DNA of 32,000 nt from Horticoccus luteus (GCF_019464535.1 NZ_CP080507.1:1260001-1292000); one strand, 5' to 3'. Positions 14,052 to 28,593 are shown, numbered from the stretch's first letter. The notes: generated from the sequence alone by a model not told the origin. Program-made: numbers and translations.

Positions 14052-14148
14052 CCGGAAGCGGTTTTGAGCGAGTGAATGAGGCGCTCATATTCGCGGTAAG
14101 CGCCAATTAAAAACCACATAATACGTGCATCGTCGCCAGCGGCGGTCG

Positions 14149-14215
14149 TGCGCATGCGCAGGCGGCGTGAAATTACTCGCGCCGCGAGTCGGGCGGCGGA
14201 GGGCAACGCGAGTCG
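14149..14215. promoter_or_regulatory. Cluster of palindromes and direct repeats in the divergent NUDIX / pil-like operon control region
   Basis: There is a perfect 12-bp palindrome TGCGCATGCGCA (14149-14160). A 15-bp palindrome ACTCGCG-c-CGCGAGT sits at 14175-14189. CGCGAGTCG is repeated at 14183-14191 and 14207-14215. All lie 100-165 nt upstream of ATG 14313. Confidence 0.3.
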
Positions 14216-14312
14216 TCGGCGAATGCCCGGTGCGGGACCGGAGAATTTCCGGGGTTAGGGCTTGCGGCCTCTGCGCGCGCGTCGTGCCATAACGGCCCAG
14301 CTTTCCCCCCTG

Positions 14313-15974
14313 ATGCGTTTCTCCCGTTCGTTCGTGGTCGACTGTGGCGCGAGCCATGTCGCTTGTTGTAAGTTCACAACGAGCGGCCGTGGCGGCCTGA
14401 GGGTCGCCGCATTTTCGCAGGTTAGGCATCTTGCCGATCCGGCGGCGGATGTAGGGTGGGCGGATGGCGTCGTCGAAGCGGTGGCGACGGCGCGCGCGGC
14501 GGGCTGGGGAACGCAGTGCACGCTCGTGCTGCCGGGCCATCTGGCGTTGACGAAGTTCGGGAAGACGGCGTCCGTCGCGCCGGCCAAGCGCGAGCGGATC
14601 ATCGCGTTCGAAGCGGCGCAAAATATTCCTTATCCGCTCGAAGACGTGGTGTGGGATCATCTGGAAACGGCGGACGACGGCCTCGACGTGGAGTTCATGC
14701 TCGCGGCGGCGAAGCGGGATTTGGTGGAGGATTTGTGCGCGCGAGTAGAGGCGGCGGGCGTGGCGGTGACGCGCGTGCTGCCTGCCAGCCTGGCGCTGCG
14801 GCGAGCCTTGGCGCACAACTACGAGCCCGTCGAAAGCCCGGCGGTCGTGGTCGATGTGGGCGCGCGTTCCTCGCACGTGTTGCTGGTTGAGCCGGGCGGG
14901 CGATTTGCGCTGCGGACGTTTACGCTCGGCGGCAACACCCTCACGCAAGCGATCGCCGACGAGCTGCGACTCGATTTTGCGCATGCGGAAGCGTTGAAGC
15001 TGCAAGTGCTCGGCGCGCCGAGTGGCACCTCCGTGCCGGCCGCGGCGCGGGCGGCGGTCGAACGCGCCGCGGCGGCGTTTGCGGCGCGTTTGCAGGCGGA
15101 GGTGATGCGCTCGATGGCGAACTTCACGCGGCAGGGTGGCACGGCAGCCACGCGACTCTATCTTGCGGGCGGCGGCGCGGCGTTTCCCGTGGCGCGGGAG
15201 GCGATTGCGGCGGGCATGGGCGTGCCGGTGGAGCGTTACGACGCGTGGCGTCACGTTACGTTCGCGACGGCCGCTGAAGGTGAAGCGGAAGCAACGTCGG
15301 CGGCGGCGCAACTCGTGGGTGCGGCGGTGCCCGTAACGGGCGCGGCGGCGGCATTCAATCTCGTGCCGCCGGCTCTGGCGGCGCGCGGATCGGAGCGGCG
15401 GCGGCAGTGGCAGTGGCTCGCGGCGGCGGCGCTCGTGATCGTTTCGTTGACCGGACCGGCGTGGTATTTTCAACGGCGCGCGCGCGCGGCCGACGCGGAG
15501 TCGCGCCGGCTGACGGCACAGTTGCAACCGGTGCGGCGGGCGCGGGCGCACAACGAGGCGATCCTCGCGCAACTCGCGGAAACGGAGAAGCAGAGCGCGG
15601 CGTTGAGCCGGGTGTTTGCCACGCGCGCGAACTGGCTGGCGTTCTTCGGCGATTTGCAGAGCCGCCTGGTGAAGGTGGAGGATGTGTGGCTGGAGAAAAT
15701 GCAGGACGGGCCGCCGGTCGCAGGCGGGCCGGCGCCGGCGGAGGGAGCGGCGCCGCCGCCGCGGCGGTTGACGTTGAGCGGGCGTTTGCTCGACCGGCAG
15801 AATCCGGTGTCGCAGGTGAGCCGCGATTCCTACGAACACGTGCGCGCGTTGCTGGCGGATTTGCGTGGATCGCGATTCGTGGCGGCGGTGGAAAACGAGC
15901 GCTTCGACAACACGCAGCCGGGCATCCTGCGCTTCGACTGCACTCTCGTGATCAACCCGCAGCATCCGCTCTGA
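14313..15974 (+). CDS. Fused PilM-like (actin-fold ATPase) / PilN-like type IV pilus alignment-complex protein, GspL-like architecture
   Basis: 553 aa from ATG 14313. The N-terminal ~345 aa match PilM block by block (FVVDCGASHV; RIIAFEAAQNIPYPLEDVVWD; VEFMLAAAKRDLVEDLCARVEAAGV; VVDVGARSSHVLLV; TLGGNTLTQAIADELRLDFAHAEALK). Next come an INLLP-like FNLVPP motif, the TM helix LAAAALVIVSLTGPAWYF, a coiled coil and a PilN-type periplasmic domain. Confidence 0.8.
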   Translation: MRFSRSFVVDCGASHVACCKFTTSGRGGLRVAAFSQVRHLADPAADVGWADGVVEAVATARAAGWGTQCTLVLPGHLALTKFGKTASVAPAKRERIIAFEAAQNIPYPLEDVVWDHLETADDGLDVEFMLAAAKRDLVEDLCARVEAAGVAVTRVLPASLALRRALAHNYEPVESPAVVVDVGARSSHVLLVEPGGRFALRTFTLGGNTLTQAIADELRLDFAHAEALKLQVLGAPSGTSVPAAARAAVERAAAAFAARLQAEVMRSMANFTRQGGTAATRLYLAGGGAAFPVAREAIAAGMGVPVERYDAWRHVTFATAAEGEAEATSAAAQLVGAAVPVTGAAAAFNLVPPALAARGSERRRQWQWLAAAALVIVSLTGPAWYFQRRARAADAESRRLTAQLQPVRRARAHNEAILAQLAETEKQSAALSRVFATRANWLAFFGDLQSRLVKVEDVWLEKMQDGPPVAGGPAPAEGAAPPPRRLTLSGRLLDRQNPVSQVSRDSYEHVRALLADLRGSRFVAAVENERFDNTQPGILRFDCTLVINPQHPL

Positions 15975-15976
15975 CG

Positions 15977-16879
15977 ATGGCGGCCGCGCGATTACATCCG
16001 TTGATGACCACGGCGTTTGTCGTGCTGGGGCTGGCGGCGGTCGGCGCGGGCTGGAGCCTGCATCTGCGGGTGAAAGCGGCGCAGACGGCGGAGAAGAAAC
16101 GCGACCGCTTGCGCAGCGAATGGGCGTCGGCGCGCGCGGCGATGCCGGCACCGACGGAGGCCACGGGCGCGGAGCTGGAAGCGCAACTGGCGCGCGCGCA
16201 GCAGCGGTTGGCGCACATGCGCACGAGTCTGGCCGGGCGCGGCGCGGCGGCGCAGCAATGGCAGGCGGCGGCGAAGCCGACCACGCGCACGGCGGCGTAT
16301 TTCGAGCTGGCGGCGTTTGTCGAACGGATGCGCAACCGCGCGCGGGAAAAAGGCGTGCGTCTGCGGCCCGATGAACAATTCGGTTTCGCCACGCACGCGC
16401 ACGAAGGGCCCGACGAAACGGTTGCACCGATCGTCACGCGGCAGCGGTTGATCGCGGAGTTTTTGCTGACGACGTTGATCGACGGACAGGCGCAGCAGAT
16501 CGTGTCGGTGCAGCGCGAACGGCCGGTCGCGCCGGGCGCTGATGCGACGGCGGCGCGCAACGATCGTGCGGGCGTGGCGGCGGATTTTTTCGAGCTCGAT
16601 CCGGCGTGGTCGGCGCGTGTGCCGGGGTTCGTGGATACCCTCGCGATGCGCGTGGTGTTCGTGGGCGAGACGGATGGGTTGCGCAATCTGCTGAATCAAC
16701 TCGGCGCGGGCGAACTGCCGCTCGTGGTGCGTGCGGTCGAGGCGGCGCCCGTGGACGCGCCCGGCGCGGCGGGGCCGGCGGCGGCGAGTAACGCCCCGCT
16801 CGTGGCGCGCCGGCCCACGCGGTTTACGGTCACGGTGGAGTGGGTGGAGCTCGCACCGGCGGCGCCGGCGAAAACGTGA
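15977..16879 (+). CDS. PilO-like bitopic membrane protein (Amuc_1100-like by recollection)
   Basis: 300 aa from ATG 15977, 2 nt after the upstream stop. The layout is a short cytoplasmic tail, the TM helix TTAFVVLGLAAVGAGWSL, a coiled coil (AEKKRDRLRSEW...AQLARAQQRLAHMR) and alpha/beta periplasmic modules. The track's longer ORF from 15407 overlaps the upstream gene in another frame and was rejected. Confidence 0.6.
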   Translation: MAAARLHPLMTTAFVVLGLAAVGAGWSLHLRVKAAQTAEKKRDRLRSEWASARAAMPAPTEATGAELEAQLARAQQRLAHMRTSLAGRGAAAQQWQAAAKPTTRTAAYFELAAFVERMRNRAREKGVRLRPDEQFGFATHAHEGPDETVAPIVTRQRLIAEFLLTTLIDGQAQQIVSVQRERPVAPGADATAARNDRAGVAADFFELDPAWSARVPGFVDTLAMRVVFVGETDGLRNLLNQLGAGELPLVVRAVEAAPVDAPGAAGPAAASNAPLVARRPTRFTVTVEWVELAPAAPAKT

Positions 16880-17754
16880 TGAAGCCGCTCGAACCCAGCA
16901 CCAGCGCCCTCGTGATCGCCGCCTTGCTCGCGGCGGGCTCGTTGGGGTGGAGCGCGTGGAGCCTTCACCGTTTGCAACCGCGTCCGATCGCGCCACTCAC
17001 GGCATCCGCCGGGGAAACGCCTCCGGTCGCTGAAGCGAAGCCCGACGACGAAAAAGTGGCGATGTGGGCACCGCCGCCCGCGCAATCGCACGGCGGGGCG
17101 TGGGTCTACGACGTTTTTTCACCGCCAGAAATTTTTTATGATGCGGCGACGAAGCAATTCACCGTGACGCCGCCCGTGTTGCACCGGCCGAGCGCCGGGC
17201 TCGGCGGGTTGGCGGGCCTCGAGCTGGCCGGGGTGGCGCGTGAGCTTTATCGTTTCCAACTGGTCGGATTCATCGGGCGCGAGGGGGATTGGCGCGGGAC
17301 GTTTGAGGATCGTTTGACGGGCGAGACGTTTCTCGGGCAGGAGGGGCGCGCGCTCGCGCAAACGGGACTGACGGTGCGTTTGCTCGAGGTGCGGCGCGTG
17401 CAAGTCGATTTGCCGGACAGCATGAGCACCACGCAGCGCGTCGCCACGGCGGTGCTGCACGACGATCGCACGGGCGAGGAGACTGAGCTCAACTCCGCGG
17501 CGCCGCGTTATACGGAATCATTGGTGGCATCGGTCATCACTGCGGATGGGGCGCATCACGATTTGCGGCGCGGCGACGATCTGCCGGTCGGCGAAGAAAT
17601 TTTCCATGTCGCGGCGGTGCGCCTCGATCCGCCCGCCATCGAGCTGGTTGCCGATGCCGCCGCGGATGGCCGGGCGCCCGAACATCACACGCTCGCTCTC
17701 AAGTCTGCCCCGCCGGTTCCGACGGCGTCCTCTTCCACTTCTGTTACCCCATGA
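16879..17754 (+). CDS. Bitopic membrane protein with two PilP-like beta modules
   Basis: 291 aa from ATG 16879, which shares one nucleotide with the upstream TGA (TGATG). The N-terminal TM is ALVIAALLAAGSLGWSAW, followed by a Pro-rich linker. Two segments show the PilP-type pattern: YRFQLVGFIGREGDWRGTFEDRLTGETFLGQEGRAL..TVRLLEVRRVQV and VASVITADGAHHDLRRGDDLPVGEEIFHVAAVRLDPPAIELV. Confidence 0.5.
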   Translation: MKPLEPSTSALVIAALLAAGSLGWSAWSLHRLQPRPIAPLTASAGETPPVAEAKPDDEKVAMWAPPPAQSHGGAWVYDVFSPPEIFYDAATKQFTVTPPVLHRPSAGLGGLAGLELAGVARELYRFQLVGFIGREGDWRGTFEDRLTGETFLGQEGRALAQTGLTVRLLEVRRVQVDLPDSMSTTQRVATAVLHDDRTGEETELNSAAPRYTESLVASVITADGAHHDLRRGDDLPVGEEIFHVAAVRLDPPAIELVADAAADGRAPEHHTLALKSAPPVPTASSSTSVTP

Positions 17755-20321
17755 AATCCGTATTCGCGCTGTGTTCGCCCCGTGTCGCTGCCGTGCTTTT
17801 AACTTTCGCGATCGGCGTGACGTCCGAAGTGCGGGCGGGCGCGACGCAAGCGACGCCGGAGGCGAAAATGCAACTGATGGCGGATGCTCTCCACGCGCGC
17901 GCCCAAGGTGATTTGCTGACGGCGCGCGGCGCGCTCGAGCAGCTCGTGCGACTCGGGGACCGCGATCCGGCGGTGGCGCGTCTGCTGGCGGAAGTGAATG
18001 CGCAGTTGGCGGCCAACGCGACGAGCGTGGAACCGCTGGCGATCAAGGTGGCGGTGGACCAAGCTCCCGTGCAGGGCGACGACGGCGAGACGTTGATGCA
18101 GGCGGAAACGCAGCGTTTGAAGCGCGCGATCGCGACGGCCCGCACGGCGCGCGGGCAGGCGGCGGAATCGTTCGCGCAGGGCAACTATCTCGCGGCGGTG
18201 ACGACGCTGGACGCCGCACTCGCGTCGCTACCGGTGAATCCGTTGACGCAGGATCTGGTCGGAGAATTGCGCCGGGCGCGCGATGAAGCGGCGGCGGCGG
18301 CGGCGCAGCCCGTGCCGGCGCCGGTGGCGGCGGACGATCCGCGGCACGACGAGGCGGTCGCGCTCGCGGCGCGCGGCCGGGCGCAATATCTCGCCGGCGA
18401 ATCGTCCACGGCGGCGGTGACGTTGCACGCAGCCTTGGAGCGCGATCCGAACAACGCCGAGGCGCGGCAGTTGCTCGCCCGCATCGCGCGCGATCGCGAA
18501 GGTTCGGTGCGCAACCGCGAGACGAGCCGTGCGCAGCTGCTCGACGAAGTGAACAAGAGCTGGCGGCGGCCGGAGGTGTTTCAAGAGCGCACGCGCGGGA
18601 CGGCGGCGGCGGAGAGCCTGGCGCCGGTGATGCAGAAGTTGAACGCGATCGTGCTGCCGAATGTGAACTTTACGCGGGTGGAGCTGGGCCGGGTGCTGAA
18701 CGCGTTGAGCGCGGCGTCGGAGGAATTCGATCCGGCGGCGGGGCCGATGAAGGGCGTCAACATCGTGCTGCTCGACCCGAGCAACAAGAATCCGCTGATC
18801 TCACTTTCGTTGCGCAACACGACGTTGAAGCGGGTGCTCGACTTCGCGACGGAGGCGGCGGGTTACCAGTATGAAGTGCAGTCCGATGCGGTCGTGGTGC
18901 GGCCGGGTGGGGAGACGAGCACGCTGGACACAGCGATCTTCCCGGTGACGCGGGCCACGGTGCTGCGGATGAGCGGTGTCGCTAGCGTGAACACCCCGGA
19001 TGCGTCGGCGACGACGAAGCCGGCGGACCCGTTGTCGTCGGCGGGCGCGAACAACGAGGCGGCGGGCGGCGAAGCGGTCGCGATGAAGGCGTTTCTGCAG
19101 CAGGCGGGCGTGAATTTCGAGGAAACGAAAGGCAGCAGCCTCGCCTATGACGGGTCCGCGATGATCGTGACGCAGACGCCGCGCAACATCGAACGCATCC
19201 GCAACATTCTGGCGCGGTATAACGACGTGCGGCAGGTGGAAATCGAGGCCAAGTTCATGGAAGTACAGGAGGGGGCGCTGGATGAACTCGGGGTGCAGTG
19301 GAACGTCTCGCGGCGCGGCCTGCCTCAGTTCGACACGACAACCGGTGCGCCGATTTTGAACAGCAGCGGACAGCAGGTCACGGTGCCGCAGGAGGTTTAC
19401 AGTACAAGCGGAGTAAACCGTACACTGCCATTTGCGTTTCCTTCGCAGCAATCAAGCAACGGAGGAATCACGATTAATTCGCAGCAGATTACGACGAATG
19501 CACCGCCGAACATTCCGGGCAGCGTGTCGCTGGCCAGCGGCGCGGCGGCACTGGCGAGCATTACGGGCATGATTGGCGAGTTCGATGTCAACGCGGTGGT
19601 TCGCGCGCTGGCGCAAAAGCAGGGCACGGATTTGTTGAGCGCGCCGAAGGTGACGGTGCTATCGGGAAGCGTGGCCAATATTACGGTGGCGCAGGAATTG
19701 CGTTATCCAACGAGCTTCGGGCAGACGCAAAGCCAAGTGGGCACTGGCAGTGCGAGCGGCGGAGGCTCGGCAGGCGTCGCGATCACCGCGGGCACGCCGC
19801 AGAATTTCGAAAAGCGCAACGTCGGCGTGGAGTTGAAAGTCACGCCGACTGTCGAGGAGGACGATTACAGCATCAGCCTCGACTTGAATCCGAAGGTGAC
19901 GGAGTTCGACGGCTTCGTGGAATACGGCGGCCCGAGTGTGGCGATCTCGCAGGGCAACACGGTTACGGTGCCGTCGGGCTTTTATCAGCCAATTTTCTCG
20001 GTGCGGGACATTTCGACGAAAGTGACCATCTGGGATGGCGCGACGTTGATCATGGGCGGGCTGACGCGCGAGGAAGTGAAAAAGGTGAACGACAAAGTGC
20101 CGTTGCTCGGAGACCTGCCGCTGCTCGGACGGCTTTTCAAGTCGAAGGGTGAAAGCGCCCAGAAGCGGAATCTACTGATCTTCGTGACGGCGAATTTGGT
20201 GAGTCCGGGCGGTTCGTTGAAAAAGCAGGAACTGCGGGATGTGGCACCGAGCGCACTGTTTCAGAATCCATCGGTCGTGACGCCGCAGGGCGCCGATCCA
20301 CGAGTGAATGGCACGAAATGA
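17751..20321 (+). CDS. Secretin (GspD/PilQ superfamily) with an N-terminal TPR-like extension
   Basis: ATG 17751 overlaps the upstream stop (ATGA). The signal peptide is MKSVFALCSPRVAAVLLTFAIGVTSEVRA. About 280 aa of Ala/Arg-rich helical-hairpin (TPR-like) sequence follows, then N0/N1-type domains (VLPNVNFTRVELGRVLNALS; VEIEAKFMEVQEG). The secretin domain is canonical (LLSAPKVTVLSGSVANI; VELKVTPTV; KVPLLGDLPLLGRLFKS; LLIFVTANLV). Confidence 0.9.
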   Translation: MKSVFALCSPRVAAVLLTFAIGVTSEVRAGATQATPEAKMQLMADALHARAQGDLLTARGALEQLVRLGDRDPAVARLLAEVNAQLAANATSVEPLAIKVAVDQAPVQGDDGETLMQAETQRLKRAIATARTARGQAAESFAQGNYLAAVTTLDAALASLPVNPLTQDLVGELRRARDEAAAAAAQPVPAPVAADDPRHDEAVALAARGRAQYLAGESSTAAVTLHAALERDPNNAEARQLLARIARDREGSVRNRETSRAQLLDEVNKSWRRPEVFQERTRGTAAAESLAPVMQKLNAIVLPNVNFTRVELGRVLNALSAASEEFDPAAGPMKGVNIVLLDPSNKNPLISLSLRNTTLKRVLDFATEAAGYQYEVQSDAVVVRPGGETSTLDTAIFPVTRATVLRMSGVASVNTPDASATTKPADPLSSAGANNEAAGGEAVAMKAFLQQAGVNFEETKGSSLAYDGSAMIVTQTPRNIERIRNILARYNDVRQVEIEAKFMEVQEGALDELGVQWNVSRRGLPQFDTTTGAPILNSSGQQVTVPQEVYSTSGVNRTLPFAFPSQQSSNGGITINSQQITTNAPPNIPGSVSLASGAAALASITGMIGEFDVNAVVRALAQKQGTDLLSAPKVTVLSGSVANITVAQELRYPTSFGQTQSQVGTGSASGGGSAGVAITAGTPQNFEKRNVGVELKVTPTVEEDDYSISLDLNPKVTEFDGFVEYGGPSVAISQGNTVTVPSGFYQPIFSVRDISTKVTIWDGATLIMGGLTREEVKKVNDKVPLLGDLPLLGRLFKSKGESAQKRNLLIFVTANLVSPGGSLKKQELRDVAPSALFQNPSVVTPQGADPRVNGTK

Positions 20322-20339
20322 CGCGGAAAGTCCCCGACG

Positions 20340-23300
20340 ATGAAAACAAATTCCTCCGGTCTTAAACTCCCCGCATGGACCGCGGTACTGGTTTTGGCGA
20401 TCGCCTGCCAAGTGGCACGGGCGGGGTCAGTGACTCTCACTTCCGTGGATACCACGTTGAATTCGGAGTCGCGGAACACGCTGGTCGAGGCTGAGAGCAA
20501 ATATGAACACGACCTTGCTTCCGCCAGCCCCATCACCGTGCATTTCGATTGGGAGAACGCGAGCGGGACAACAAGTTTTGAGCTGCTGGAAAACGGCATC
20601 CGACGGGCGAGAATTTCAGCCGCCCAGCCGTTCGGTAGTGGTTCGCTGAGTTACACGCCCAAGCTACCAGGAGTGGTCCAGCTAACGGTCAAAATGGTGA
20701 GTGAAGGGTCCACGGTGGCCTCGTCGGAAACACTCAACGTGCGGATTTATGGGACGGCGATGGATCCCGCACTCGATGATGAAGCGTTGCCGTACACGTC
20801 AGCGATTTACCTCCACGCCGATGCCTTGGTGAAAAGCGACACGGTGGCGAAAACGGAGTTCTGGGCTGCAGTGGACCGCAGGCATACGGGAGCCCCGATT
20901 GGGGGCAGTTTCACGTTGACCCTGAACGGAGAGACGACGGCGGCAATTCCTGCGGATGCAGACGAGACAGCGGTGCAACAGGCCCTGGAGAACGTGCCGT
21001 CCGTGGGCGCAGGCAACGTGGTCGTAGCAAAAATGTCGCCTCCGACATCGCTGCCGGGTTCGAAATTCCGCACCTTCATCGTCCAATTTCGAGGCTCGCT
21101 GGCGCATACTCCTCGCACCCTCATGACTGGGGATGGTAGCAATCTAAGCTACGAGTTGGCGCCGGCTGGGACCGTGCAGACTTTAAGCGTCTATCGCGTT
21201 CAGGCCGGATCGGCGACGCCGACGGAATTGAACGAGGTGCAGGTCGTGTGTCTGGTCGGTGAGCAGGGCCTAATTACGACCGATTCCAATGCGCCCTACG
21301 CGCTTCTTTGGTCGCCCGAAACGACGTTGAACGATGCATCCTTTCCTTTTCGCTCTGACAGCAGCGTGGAGATTTTCGCACGGGCGATTACCGCGAAAGG
21401 AGCGGTCTCCGCCAGTGACCCGATAGCGATTTACGCGATTCCAGCCATTCCTTCACCCCAAGGAGTTCTCACCGTCGAAATCAACGCGAGTAATCTGCAG
21501 GAATTGCCCGGGAACAACCGTATCGTCGCGGCGACGACGCCAGTGAAATTGACCGCCGAAGCGAAGGATGCGGCCGGCATCGGACGCATCGTGCAATCGG
21601 TGCAGTTTTTCCTCGACGGCGTAGCGCTGGCGCCGGTTTCGGCGGCGTTTCCTTATCAGGCCGATTGGACGCCCAAGATTGCGGGCACCTATGTGCTCAC
21701 CGCCATTGCCATCGACGATAAAAACAACCGGATCGTGTCGGCTCCGATGTTTATCAATGTGACAGACAACCGGCCCTATGTGCGGATCGTTAATCCCATG
21801 GCCGCGGCTGGCAGTCCGCTCACGATTCCGTCGGGCGCGGAGATTACGTTTACCGCGATCACGGCCGGCGCCACGGGCGATCCCGCCACGACCGGAGTCA
21901 TATTTTCCGTCGACGGCCAACCGATCAACGGAACCGGGGCAGGAGGGATATTCACGGCCACGTGGTCTCCCGCAAACATCGGAGCGACGCCCAAAAGCTA
22001 TCAGATATCGGCGAGTGTCTCAGATTCCAACTCCACCACCAATATATCTGACACGGCGTTCGTCACCGTTCTGCCACAAACGTTTGTTGGAGCTTCTCCC
22101 TCCGTTTCCGTCCAATTTCCGACAGCGGGAGGAATTACCTCGAATTCATTGGTGAACCTTGCTGCGTTCGCCAACGACAGCGACGGGGAAGTCGTGGCGG
22201 TGAGGTTTTATGCAAATGGAGTTCCGCTCGGCTTCGCTACGAGAGATCAGCAGAGCAGTAGCTGGCGGCTAGCCTATCAGGTGGGGCGATATGGCCTAGG
22301 AGATTATTCGATCGTCGCTCAAGCGATCGACAACGTCGGTAATTCTAAGGTCTCGTCGCCCGCTGTGCGAGTCACTGTGACCGAGTCCACGGCTGTCGCG
22401 CCGACGGTTATGTTGGCGGCGAGTACCCGCGAAGTAACGCAAGGCGGCAGCGTAGTGCTGAGTGCAACGGCGGCTGTCGCGGGGACGGTCGCGCAGGTGG
22501 AGTATTTCGCCAATGGCATCTCGCTTGGGGTGATGTTGTCCGCCGGACCGATGACTTGGACGCCCTCCACGCCGGCAAACTATTCGGTCTACGCGGTCGT
22601 TACAGATCAGAGCGGGAATGTGGCAGTGTCTCCAGCCGTAACGGTGTCAGTGCAGGCGGGCTATTCGGTTGCAACCAACGAGGCGTTTGTCTCCCAAACC
22701 TATCAGGACTTGGTGGGGCGGGTGCCGACGAGCGCGGAACTCGCCGCGGCGGCGCAGATTTCGGGCGGGACGCTTACGCGGGCGCAGTTCGTCGCGAACG
22801 TGGTGAGCGGGGGAGGTTTTGCCTACACTTTTCAGGCGACCCTCGCGTATCGCGCGGTCATCGGCGACTGGCCGGGCTACTCCGACTACTTGGCCGGAGC
22901 GGCGGCCTTAAGCACCGGCACGACGCTGGCCGATTTCACCGGGACGCTGCTCTCTTCAGCCGCCTATCTCGCGCGGAATGGCTCACTGCCGGATCTTACG
23001 ACGGTGACCAGCGGGCAGTATGCGCGCGTGTCGGCGTTTGCCTCCCAGCTTTACCAACGCACTTACGGGCGGGCTCCCACATTGATCGAGGTGCAGGCGT
23101 TTTTGAGCGATATCAACACCCTCGGGGTGAACGCCGCCGTCGCCAACTTTCTTACGACCAAGTTTATCACGCAGAGCGATGCCGGAGTAACGGCGCGGGT
23201 GCGCGCGGCTGCACTGGTCGCGGGTTTGTGGCGGGAGGGTGCTTCCGACGCGCAGGTGGCAGCGTTAAGCAGCGGGTCGACGACGGCCGCCGCCGACAGT

Positions 23301-24416
23301 GCGCTGGCCAACGCAATTTACACCGCGCGGTTCTTCACGGTGAGTGTGTTTCCCGCCAGTGCGGCGATTGCGCCCGGAGGGGGCTTGATCCTAACCGCAG
23401 AGGTGAGTGGTGCGTCATCCTTTTCGTATCAATGGTATCGCAACGGCGTGCCTTTGGCCGGAGCCGTGCAACCGGCGCTCTCCTTAAGCGCGATGAGTGC
23501 GGCCCAGACTGGAAATTACCATGTGGTGGTGGCCAATCAGGAGCTGTCAGTGGCGAGTGCGGCAGTGCGCGTGACGATGGGCGGCACCGCATCGCGGCTG
23601 GCAAATATCTCGACCCGCGGCCGGGTGGCAGCGGGTGACCAAGTGATGATTGTCGGGTTCGTGGTATCCGGCGGCACCGCCAAGCCGATGTTGGTGCGGG
23701 CGGCGGGGCCGGCGCTGGCGAGCGCGGCGGGGCTGGCGGGGACGCTCAGCGCGTCGCAACTCGAGTTGCGGACGGGAAACACGTTGCTCGGCGCCAACCA
23801 ACGCTGGGGCGAAAACGCCAATCTGTCCGCGTTGGTGACGGCCAGCACGGTAACGGGGGCGTTCGCGTTTGCCGGGGGCAGTGCGGATTCCGCGTTGCTG
23901 CAAACGCTCGACGCCGGCGTTTACACCGGTGTGGCGGGCGGCGTGAACGGTGAGAGCGGGCTCGCGCTGGTCGAGGTGTACGACGGCGACATCGCGAACG
24001 GCGGGCGCGTGATGAATTTATCGACGAGGGGCTTTGTCGGAGGGGGCGCGCAGCAGTTGATCGCAGGCTTTGTTGTGACTGGAGCCGCCGCGAAGCAGGT
24101 GTTGATCCGGGCGGTGGGACCGGGGCTGGCGGTGGCGGGCGGTTTCGTGAACGGGATGGTGCGCGATCCGCGCTTGGAGCTGGTGGCGGTGTCGGGGCTG
24201 CCGTTGCGGACCAACGACGATTGGGGAAGTGCACCGGAGGCGGCGTTGATGCCGGCGGCGGCGGCGCGGGTGGGGGCATTTCCGCTCGCGACGGGGAGCG
24301 CGGATGCGGCACTCATCGCCAATCTCGCGCCGGGCGTTTACACGGTGCTGGTAAGTGGAGCCTCGGCGAGCGACACGGGACTCGCGTTGGTGGAGGTGTA
24401 TGATCTGGATCCGTGA
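20340..24416 (+). CDS. 1358-aa exported mosaic protein: Ig-like (Big_7-type) repeats, DUF4214-like repeats, one I-set-like Ig domain and two tandem C-terminal domains of unknown function
   Basis: It starts 18 nt after the secretin stop. The N-terminal signal peptide has either an SPase I site (ARA-GS) or a lipobox-like LAIAC (Cys23). At least five about 100-aa repeats carry the Big_7-like signature (x-V-x-F..DG..L......PY...W.P...G.Y.L.A.A.D..GN...S..V.V.V). DUF4214-like FVSQTYQDLVGRVPT and ASQLYQRTYGRAPT are present, and the I-set pattern is YQWYRNGVPLAG...TGNYHVVVAN. The C-terminal duplication spans 23592-24413. There is no PEP-CTERM, LPXTG or terminal TM segment. Confidence 0.85.
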   Translation: MKTNSSGLKLPAWTAVLVLAIACQVARAGSVTLTSVDTTLNSESRNTLVEAESKYEHDLASASPITVHFDWENASGTTSFELLENGIRRARISAAQPFGSGSLSYTPKLPGVVQLTVKMVSEGSTVASSETLNVRIYGTAMDPALDDEALPYTSAIYLHADALVKSDTVAKTEFWAAVDRRHTGAPIGGSFTLTLNGETTAAIPADADETAVQQALENVPSVGAGNVVVAKMSPPTSLPGSKFRTFIVQFRGSLAHTPRTLMTGDGSNLSYELAPAGTVQTLSVYRVQAGSATPTELNEVQVVCLVGEQGLITTDSNAPYALLWSPETTLNDASFPFRSDSSVEIFARAITAKGAVSASDPIAIYAIPAIPSPQGVLTVEINASNLQELPGNNRIVAATTPVKLTAEAKDAAGIGRIVQSVQFFLDGVALAPVSAAFPYQADWTPKIAGTYVLTAIAIDDKNNRIVSAPMFINVTDNRPYVRIVNPMAAAGSPLTIPSGAEITFTAITAGATGDPATTGVIFSVDGQPINGTGAGGIFTATWSPANIGATPKSYQISASVSDSNSTTNISDTAFVTVLPQTFVGASPSVSVQFPTAGGITSNSLVNLAAFANDSDGEVVAVRFYANGVPLGFATRDQQSSSWRLAYQVGRYGLGDYSIVAQAIDNVGNSKVSSPAVRVTVTESTAVAPTVMLAASTREVTQGGSVVLSATAAVAGTVAQVEYFANGISLGVMLSAGPMTWTPSTPANYSVYAVVTDQSGNVAVSPAVTVSVQAGYSVATNEAFVSQTYQDLVGRVPTSAELAAAAQISGGTLTRAQFVANVVSGGGFAYTFQATLAYRAVIGDWPGYSDYLAGAAALSTGTTLADFTGTLLSSAAYLARNGSLPDLTTVTSGQYARVSAFASQLYQRTYGRAPTLIEVQAFLSDINTLGVNAAVANFLTTKFITQSDAGVTARVRAAALVAGLWREGASDAQVAALSSGSTTAAADSALANAIYTARFFTVSVFPASAAIAPGGGLILTAEVSGASSFSYQWYRNGVPLAGAVQPALSLSAMSAAQTGNYHVVVANQELSVASAAVRVTMGGTASRLANISTRGRVAAGDQVMIVGFVVSGGTAKPMLVRAAGPALASAAGLAGTLSASQLELRTGNTLLGANQRWGENANLSALVTASTVTGAFAFAGGSADSALLQTLDAGVYTGVAGGVNGESGLALVEVYDGDIANGGRVMNLSTRGFVGGGAQQLIAGFVVTGAAAKQVLIRAVGPGLAVAGGFVNGMVRDPRLELVAVSGLPLRTNDDWGSAPEAALMPAAAARVGAFPLATGSADAALIANLAPGVYTVLVSGASASDTGLALVEVYDLDP

Positions 24417-27111: not shown

Positions 27112-27164
27112 CGAAACGCGCGAACTCGCGCGGTGAAGGACGCGCCTGCGAATCAGGCAGCGAC

Positions 27165-27191
27165 AAAAAGCCGCCCGGGGCGGGGCGGCTT
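27165..27191 (-). terminator. Rho-independent terminator downstream of sodA; the hairpin may also stop convergent kdsA transcription
   Basis: 9-bp stem AAGCCGCCC (27168-27176) / GGGCGGCTT (27183-27191) with a 6-nt loop. On the minus strand a U-run follows it (plus-strand A5 at 27165-27169). It lies 29 nt beyond the sodA stop. Confidence 0.6.
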
Positions 27192-27219
27192 GGAGAAATG
27201 TGAAACGGCGGGCGGTCGC

Positions 27220-27846
<627 letters not shown>

Positions 27847-27943
27847 GATTGTGAGTGGTTGAATTAAACCAGAGAGAAGAGCGAACGTGCAGCGGGCACC
27901 CGGCTCCGTCAACCCCCGGACGCAGAAAGACAAGCGCAGCGGA

Positions 27944-28474
27944 TCAAACGTCGGGAGCGTCGCGCTTGGCGCGGAAGAATGCCTGCAGGAGAGTGCGACA
28001 CTCGTCCTCAAGGACACCGCCGGCGGTGAGCTCAAGGTGATGGTTGACGCGCGGAAGATCGTTGAGATTGGTGGCGCCGCCGAGGCAGCCCATTTTGGGA
28101 TCTGGGACGGCGTAGCAGACGCGTTTCACGCGCGACATGAGCATCGCGCCGGAGCACATGGGGCAGGGCTCCTTGGTGACGTAAACGGTGGCGCCTTCGA
28201 GGCGCCAGTCGCCGAGATGAGCGGCGGCCTGAGTGACGGCGAGCATCTCGGCGTGGGCGGTGGGATCGTGCGCGCCCTCGACGGTGTTGTGCGCGGAGGC
28301 GACCACTTCGCCGCCGATTTCGATGACGGCGCCGATGGGGACTTCGTCGAGCCGCCAAGCGTCGATGGCTTGGTTGTAAGCGAGGCTCATGAAGAAGGTG
28401 TCGTCGCGTCGGAGTTGGGACGGAAAACGTTTATCGAACGGACACGGAGGCGGGGGCGGAGGCGACGAGACCAT
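27944..28474 (-). CDS. tadA: tRNA adenosine(34) deaminase
   Basis: CMP/dCMP-type zinc-binding motifs HAEMLA and PCPMCSGA. The TadA-like N-terminal helix is [14 protein letters not shown]. The first 15 residues include an unusual Pro6 run ([13 protein letters not shown]), so the exact start is uncertain. Confidence 0.9.
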
Positions 28475-28593
28475 GGGTGCGAACAGGGAAAACCTTGACT
28501 AAAGAGCGGCGTTTCGGCCTTACAAGGGCACTTTTATCTCCACCACTGCGCATGAATCAACCTACCCGCGGCTCTGCCGTTCTCTGAGTTTAT

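Follow-up and report, generated by a model that had tools for sequence, protein, structure and literature searches.

A verrucomicrobial secretin module in Horticoccus luteus and its relatives, usually coupled to a giant, fast-evolving exported protein

When the genes of an envelope machine run with hardly a gap into the gene for a giant immunoglobulin (Ig)-like protein, is the giant a partner of that machine or a passenger behind it? The question is raised by five co-oriented genes, g1 to g5, in a 32,000-nucleotide (nt) stretch of chromosomal DNA (hereafter the window; NZ_CP080507.1:1260001-1292000) of the soil bacterium Horticoccus luteus (Opitutaceae, Verrucomicrobiota; ~64% guanine plus cytosine (GC)). 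They encode proteins of 553, 300, 291, 856 and 1358 amino acids (aa), of which the fourth is an outer-membrane secretin and the fifth the giant. An original prediction described them as a highly divergent pilMNOPQ-like operon ending in a giant Ig-repeat protein. We firmly establish here that g1 to g4 are the Opitutaceae form of the verrucomicrobial Amuc_1101/1100/1099/1098 module, that is, MUL2 plus its secretin, and that most Opitutaceae clusters are extended by a tightly coupled, fast-evolving giant gene with a signal peptide and a common, unannotated C-terminal domain (CTD).

Rereading the coordinates recovered the five open reading frames (ORFs) and their four junctions exactly as originally predicted (features are collected in Table 1). 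The TGA of g1 (15972-15974) is separated by CG (15975-15976) from the ATG of g2 at 15977; g2 and g3 overlap in TGATG (16877-16881) and g3 and g4 in ATGA (17751-17754); and the secretin TGA (20319-20321) is followed by an 18-nt gap and the ATG of g5 at 20340. The start codons chosen agree with orthologue alignments, in which g1 orthologues start with MRSPRVLAVDIGAGHVACG, against MRFSRSFVVDCGASHVAC at 14313. Neither a terminator-like nor a sigma-70-like site turned up in simple scans of the 18-nt gap and the sequence beside it, which is weak evidence in a verrucomicrobial genome of 64% GC. The operon holds no relevant tandem DNA repeats or known RNA elements.

The first four genes can be placed by homology. 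The likeness to the Akkermansia muciniphila Amuc_1101-to-Amuc_1098 cluster, pointed out in the original prediction, is real and significant for three of the four proteins. g1 matches NCBIfam Amuc_1101_fam over residues 6-464 (expect (E) value 6.8e-75; 253 bits against an equivalog cut-off of 650), g2 matches Amuc_1100_fam (E 1.8e-16; 60 bits, cut-off 180) and g4 matches Amuc_1098_fam over residues 206-822 (E 3.3e-120; 402 bits, cut-off 750), the model match leaving out ~205 N-terminal residues of the secretin and with them much of its tetratricopeptide repeat (TPR) region. As these scores fall well under the equivalog cut-offs, g1 is an Amuc_1101-family homologue and not an equivalog, and g1, g2 and g4 are all distant members of the Amuc families. 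g1 also matches Pfam PilM_2 (PF11104; 70.9 bits, cut-off 27) and, under its cut-off of 133, TIGR01175 (86 bits). For g2, a profile of 21 orthologues found the Amuc_1100 crystal structures 6LAD and 6KNY in the PDB (E 1.8e-6, that is ~2e-6), and the g2 orthologue of a close relative (locus L084) bears Pfam PF28028, Amuc_1100; a match to GspM is faint (E 0.061). The g4 product, 100% identical to H. luteus protein P0001, matches Pfam Secretin at 128 bits, with TPR_14 and STN under threshold.

g3 has no family match itself, and just one of 20 members of its family weakly matches Amuc_1099_fam (E 0.13) and pilP_fam (E 0.16). An AlphaFold2 model from a 16-sequence alignment has a predicted local distance difference test (pLDDT) score >90 across the beta domain, and the linker in front of it holds a conserved motif, WxYDVFxPPEIFY. 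Foldseek found nothing significant for this model in the PDB, the highest probabilities being those of Neisseria PilP 2IVW (0.63, E 0.56) and of 4AV2_M (0.54). The membrane anchor is a transmembrane (TM) helix, and there is no lipobox. We describe g3 as a membrane-anchored beta-domain protein in the PilP/Amuc_1099 position; its identity as PilP or Amuc_1099 is weakly supported. Two proteins of relatives, P0157 and P0158 (514-517 aa), are natural g2-g3 fusions, g2-like over residues 18-284 (hhalign E 2e-34) and g3-like over residues 296-504 (E 5e-33). Their genes (L086:10001-11545 and L087:10001-11554) lie between the PilM-like gene and the secretin gene. That the two are one protein in some relatives suggests that g2 and g3 act together, by Rosetta stone logic. 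At both fusion loci the secretin is without the TPR extension (678-681 aa) and is followed by an unrelated 344-354-aa protein, with no giant. A correlation between TPR extension and giant gene was considered and rejected: these two loci are without both, and most giant-less loci keep the N-terminal region of the secretin.

The module found in the window belongs to a described system. The A. muciniphila envelope is rich in the Amuc_1098-1102 proteins, and no outer-membrane protein of this species is more abundant than Amuc_1098 (PMC5332112). In PMC13174399, which cites Davey et al. 2023, MUL2 (Amuc_1099-1102) is presented as a type IV-like pilus system that is required for the attachment and uptake of mucin, with a role in the attachment or uptake of fucose-rich glycans in Akkermansiaceae; there it is also described as conserved in Verrucomicrobiales, and fluorescent fucoidan as building up inside marine Akkermansiaceae cells. 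The earlier view that the Akkermansia cluster has no established mechanistic role is thus outdated, a role in glycan attachment and uptake having since been proposed. Opitutales are not mentioned in that paper. We found, in the literature searched, no description of a giant Ig protein coupled to this operon, as the original prediction had supposed, and none of the cluster in Opitutaceae. The window and the Akkermansia cluster share their order and orientation (PilM-like protein, Amuc_1100-like protein, small exported or bitopic protein, secretin) and a setting among housekeeping genes. They differ in that the window proteins score well short of the Akkermansia family cut-offs given above, g3 is not detectably Amuc_1099, no Amuc_1102/MUL2A-like gene stands upstream and a giant CTD-bearing Ig protein is coupled downstream.

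Is the giant gene itself a regular part of this arrangement? A secretin-alignment scan of GTDB species genomes gave 80 loci, nearly all labelled Opitutaceae or Opitutales, and giants were counted in the 66 with at least 1.5 kb of DNA downstream of the secretin. Of the loci with sufficient upstream sequence, most have the same frame of E1a, NUDIX (minus strand), g1, g2, g3 and g4. A giant ORF follows the secretin on the same strand in about three quarters of the loci counted (49 of 66), starting between -35 and +28 nt from the secretin stop (median 18, with a 4-nt overlap in eight loci), and complete copies encode 854-3309 aa. Recurrence of the same coupling in 49 independent Opitutaceae loci shows that the tight g4-g5 spacing is not due to chance; the giant is indeed syntenic with the secretin operon in relatives. 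It is missing from 17 of the 66 loci, in which genes 1-4 are intact. A 5'-3' exonuclease homologue comes next in 15 giant-less loci, at distances ranging from a 61-nt overlap with the secretin gene to 2.1 kb beyond it, and the exonuclease gene comes after the giant in 16 giant-bearing ones. Hence, the giant is a presence/absence insert (indel) in a fixed frame. The window lineage has pyrG after the giant and not the exonuclease gene; at L084, where the secretin is 72% identical to that of the window, a 1356-aa giant is followed by DUF5069 and pyrG. In a neighbour-joining tree built on the last 560 secretin residues, every member of one large clade (~50 loci) has the giant, as do the window lineage and the basal loci L077 and L080, although secretin identity falls to ~53%. 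The giant gene is therefore a conserved but dispensable accessory and not part of the core.

A second gene family accompanies many of these operons. Between NUDIX and the PilM-like gene, 42 loci have an exported ORF of ~190 aa (L001:4409-5059, L005:5391-6047 and 40 others), in the position of Amuc_1102/MUL2A, and its presence tracks that of the giant only partly. As a homologue of Amuc_1102 it was rejected, with no sequence match in PDB, Pfam or NCBIfam.

The giants inspected have signal-peptide-like N termini, and the tandem CTD ends every complete giant except that of L003 and the frame-split L016. Started at the ATG at 20340, g5 has a canonical Sec leader and agrees with relatives; the NCBI annotation (1323 aa) begins at V36, so that the signal peptide (window 20340-20447) is lost. 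The part conserved among secretin-linked giants corresponds to g5 residues ~300-1358, and the N-terminal ~300 aa have a counterpart among other giants only in the L084 relative. Comparison with one relative, locus L085, is instructive: its secretin is 92% identical to that of the window, its g2 87% and its g3 75%, while its giant (L085:4294-10854) has 2186 aa of which only the last ~770 align, at 62% identity. From the secretin and giant-tail values it follows that the giant evolves far faster than the machine, as is typical of surface-exposed proteins.

Three further observations concern g5. The comparison with L085 suggests that the N-terminal Ig region undergoes fast remodelling or exchange of alleles. 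Over most of the gene (window 20001-23000) both GC (0.585-0.606) and GC skew (-0.02 to 0.12) are below those of genes 1-4 (GC 0.66-0.71), which could come from amino-acid composition or from a foreign or recombinant origin. Residues 181-229 (20880-21026) contain a short motif, GGSFTLTLNGETTAAIPADADETAVQQALENVP, with a match in a phage 'tail tip cage' protein (9D93, E 1.2e-6); three copies of the motif occur in the metagenomic protein P0142.

The CTD itself is a tandem pair of repeats of ~135 aa each. Its AlphaFold2 model comprises two jelly rolls (pLDDT 89, predicted template modelling score 0.86) and is best matched in the PDB by the tandem collagen-binding domains of ColG (5IKU, E 1.4e-6), followed by the N-terminal domains of DeCLIC. 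The CTD sequences comprise the window copy, P0124-P0136 and P0159-P0308. No Pfam family matches them, PF04151 included; NCBIfam FDP_fam does so weakly for 10 of 12 members (window copy 19.6 bits, cut-off 29), and Por_Secre_tail weakly for two of 12 (best E 0.0015). Among 1.84 billion 50%-identity clusters, a hidden Markov model of the CTD matched 19,659 cluster representatives at E <= 1e-3, of which 11,246 also pass E <= 1e-30. The best 150 matches come from proteins of 337-3940 aa whose N-terminal domains differ widely, and in nearly all of them the best-matching stretch stops at the C terminus or a few residues short of it. Unrelated large proteins that end in the tandem pair include S8 peptidases with PQQ propellers and lactonase-/NHL-like, beta-helix and Calx-beta proteins. 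Such a beta-sandwich or jelly roll at the extreme C terminus of unrelated exported enzymes and adhesins recalls the CTDs of the type IX secretion system (T9SS), PPC domains and clostridial collagen-binding domains, from which this CTD differs in always being a tandem pair and, for ColG, in a likeness at the fold level only. We know of no T9SS in Verrucomicrobiota. The CTD has the look of a module for sorting, anchoring or binding that is so far undescribed.

Across the 80 secretin-centred loci (~1.3 Mb), CTD genes are confined to the giants that follow the secretin, apart from two CTD fragments upstream in L046. Elsewhere, three other CTD genes were looked up, and none is beside a secretin: one is in a four-CTD locus, one is flanked by TonB genes and one is isolated. 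The first of these loci (L081:4733-17770) has four consecutive large CTD genes, with N-terminal He_PIG/Ig, S8 peptidase with PQQ, and NHL/SGL-like regions. At the second (L082:4330-13973) a CTD beta-helix protein is encoded between two TonB-dependent-receptor-like genes, a layout like that of a polysaccharide utilization locus, in the same metagenome-assembled genome (JACRQG01) as a secretin locus, L038, with a 3062-aa giant.

How, then, might the giant relate to the machine? The reading we favour, which we hold to be evenly poised between right and wrong, is that g5 is a surface adhesin or fibre that partners the MUL2-type machine in glycan capture, via the secretin or docked at it. Genes 1-4 would form an envelope-spanning scaffold, type IV pilus-like or type II secretion system (T2SS)-like, in which a cytoplasmic PilM actin-like domain of g1 is joined by one TM helix to a periplasmic domain, g2 in the PilO position acts with g3, the bitopic beta-domain protein in the PilP/GspC position, and g4 provides a TPR-N0-secretin channel in the outer membrane. 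g5 would be made from the same transcript, as its coupling to g4 suggests, and exported by Sec; it may then pass through the secretin or dock there, probably reaching the cell surface. Its Ig string and collagen-binding-like jelly rolls could be the arm with which an apparatus for glycan attachment and uptake captures substrate or particles. A binding-arm role is suggested by the likeness of the CTD fold to binding modules of secreted enzymes and by the glycan attachment and uptake reported for MUL2. Dependence of g5 on the secretin is less certain than the reading as a whole.

Several observations weigh against such a partnership. Two clades on the secretin tree keep genes 1-4 without the giant, and the Akkermansiaceae neighbours given in PMC13174399 include no giant gene, so the machine evidently works without it. 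The CTD, being on ~19,700 clusters with the three looked up unlinked to secretins, is not a secretin-specific tag. The idea that the giant is a dedicated component thus fails on two counts: it is not indispensable, and its CTD is shared very widely. A tblastn search of the window with the ~190-aa ORF family of the relatives found no counterpart, and only 260 nt separate NUDIX and g1. Lastly, no ATPase, pilin or platform gene is seen in the 32 kb, as originally predicted. This absence says little, since it is usual for pilMNOPQ operons, which in Pseudomonas, for example, commonly lie apart from the pilin and ATPase genes.

The same facts lend themselves to a different account, which we consider appreciably less probable than the partnership. 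g5 could be an independent surface or secreted CTD protein whose gene landed 3' of a strongly expressed operon, was kept there for its expression and sends its product out by a general route for CTD proteins. The abundance of CTDs away from secretins would then be expected, as would the clean absence of the giant from 17 loci with genes 1-4 intact, its highly variable N-terminal content and its GC below that of genes 1-4. What this account leaves unexplained is constancy of place: the exact position and coupling distances have been kept across a clade whose secretins diverged to ~55-60% identity, and in basal lineages as well, and in ~1.3 Mb of Opitutaceae loci the CTD genes stand only after the secretin, save for the L046 fragments. 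Without a functional tie, one would expect such an insert to have drifted or vanished more often.

Partnership in glycan capture also has to be set against an unlikely, though compatible, proposal, that genes 1-4 are simply the PilMNOPQ of an ordinary type IVa pilus of this phylum, with pilins, PilB/PilT, PilC and prepilin peptidase encoded elsewhere in the 4.3-Mb genome; g5 would then be at most a pilus-associated, or an unrelated, adhesin. Gene order, M(N)-O-P-Q, is that of Pseudomonas and Myxococcus, as are the PilM actin-like domain, a bitopic partner and a beta-domain protein before the secretin; PilM_2 and Secretin pass Pfam thresholds; pilMNOPQ is often apart from pilin and ATPase genes, as in Pseudomonas; and PMC13174399 itself uses the term 'type IV-like pilus'. 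The proteins fit less well. The secretin scores higher with GspD (TIGR02517; 157 bits, cut-off 351), its second-best family after Amuc_1098, than with PilQ (TIGR02515; 132 bits, cut-off 284), both far under cut-off, and TPR and STN stand in place of AMIN domains, for which g4 has no match. Moreover, g3 is TM-anchored and not a lipoprotein, canonical operons have no giant protein, and g1 is an M-N fusion like GspL. The 'PilN', 'PilO' and 'PilP' labels of the original prediction rest on architecture and position and not on demonstrable homology: neither Pfam nor NCBIfam gives a PilO match for g2 or a PilN match for the C-terminal region of g1, no PilP family match is found for g3, and its Foldseek comparison is not significant. 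That M and N are fused holds for the topology of g1, which is PilM-PilN fusion-like or GspL-like, but PilN homology of its C terminus is not demonstrable, a profile of that region having no PDB match either. As a PilN/PilO paralogue of g2, the g1 C terminus was tried and rejected: hhalign aligned the TM helix and coiled coil only, at a probability of 5%, and no PDB match was found. 'Highly divergent' is apt against PilMNOPQ of the Pseudomonas type, where only PilM_2 and Secretin pass Pfam thresholds, but not within Opitutaceae, whose secretins are 53-92% identical.

Comparison with the T2SS proteins GspL, GspM, GspC and GspD bears on a last proposal. GspL corresponds structurally to a PilM-PilN fusion, and GspC is a TM-anchored protein whose beta 'HR' domain binds the N0 domain of the secretin; g1 is a fusion like GspL, g3 is TM-anchored like GspC and g4 has GspD as its second-best match. 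The gene order, however, is type IV pilus-like, g1 matches PilM and not GspL, and no gspE, gspF or pseudopilin gene is linked, with none of GspE, GspF or GspG encoded within the window. A T2SS-like role for the Amuc_1098-type machine, as exporter or anchor of CTD proteins with g5 as its prime substrate, is the least probable of the readings and distinctly improbable: this GspLMCD-like architecture with an N0/STN secretin, the C-terminal placement of the CTD in the best 150 matches, typical of a sorting or anchor domain, its occurrence on typical secreted enzymes and adhesins where domains are seen, and its weak resemblance to PPC-type and T9SS tail domains all speak for it, but C-terminal tags are not known from T2SS substrates, the linked GspE, GspF and pseudopilin genes are missing and the resemblance to sorting domains is at the fold level or under threshold.

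The surroundings of the operon are chromosomal housekeeping, and in all of Opitutaceae the cluster is set between pyruvate dehydrogenase/NUDIX genes and housekeeping genes. On one side are lipA, lipB, DUF2961, a GH32/43-like protein, a kinase, lysS, a lolCE/lolD-like ATP-binding cassette transporter and PhyH, followed up to the operon by pyruvate dehydrogenase (PDH) E2, E1b and E1a and NUDIX; on the other are pyrG, kdsA, superoxide dismutase (SOD), a deaminase, xerC and a phosphorylase. Pilin, ATPase or platform genes hidden in unannotated ORFs were considered and rejected, the long 'unknown' plus-strand ORFs being antisense artefacts: 132-1286, 1473-2357, 27133-27867 and 27887-28498 lie opposite lipA, lipB, SOD and the deaminase. 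Spurious ORFs of up to 780 aa also overlap real genes (14085-16427 on the minus strand, 15407-16879 and 22556-23638 on the plus strand, and others). Very long spurious and antisense ORFs of this kind are explained by the high GC content.

Table 1. Features of the secretin operon and its giant gene in the window (positions counted from its first nucleotide).
Feature	Position	Strand	Basis
Intergenic region, divergent NUDIX gene to g1	14052..14312		~190-aa exported ORF of relatives absent
g1, PilM-like actin-fold domain (residues 85-322), TM helix (residues ~366-386), periplasmic coiled-coil plus alpha/beta region	14313..15974	+	Pfam PilM_2, Amuc_1101_fam
g2, bitopic Amuc_1100-family protein in PilO position	15977..16879	+	Amuc_1100_fam, profile against PDB
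g3, TM helix (residues 6-31), disordered linker, beta domain (residues 112-275); PilP/GspC/Amuc_1099 position	16879..17754	+	AlphaFold2 model, position
g4, outer-membrane secretin: signal peptide, TPR region (~residues 40-260), STN/N0-like domain (residues 345-385), secretin domain (residues 619-817)	17751..20321	+	Pfam, NCBIfam
Spacer g4-g5, 18 nt	20322..20339	+	Purine-rich GGAAAG before g5 ATG
g5, 1358-aa Sec-exported giant protein K0B96_05190	20340..24416	+	Signal peptide, domain matches
g5 residues 30-300, lineage-specific N-terminal region	20427..21239	+	Coverage profile; L084/L085 comparison
g5 residues 390-770, four Big_7 Ig-like domains	21507..22649	+	Pfam Big_7, E 1.1e-24, 4 stretches
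g5 residues 775-1080, DUF4214 region, then Ig_3 domain	22662..23579	+	Pfam DUF4214, 25.7 bits; Ig_3, 24 bits
g5 residues 1085-1358, tandem C-terminal jelly-roll domains (CTD), to last residue	23592..24413	+	AlphaFold2, PDB match, hidden Markov model

Few probiotic effector genes have been studied as much as Amuc_1100 and its cluster, and the core cluster is already known and curated. What is new and testable here is its conserved coupling to a hypervariable giant and a very large CTD family with no Pfam match. In Opitutaceae the machine usually comes with a giant Ig protein, hypervariable and exported, which makes this protein a concrete candidate partner or client. Should the CTD prove to be a signal for sorting or anchoring, that would define the way in which large enzymes and adhesins are displayed by these polysaccharide-degrading bacteria. 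Were secretion directed by the CTD, it would be a counterpart, in the lineages that carry the CTD, of T9SS sorting by C-terminal domains, and would explain what the abundant Akkermansia-type secretin is for.

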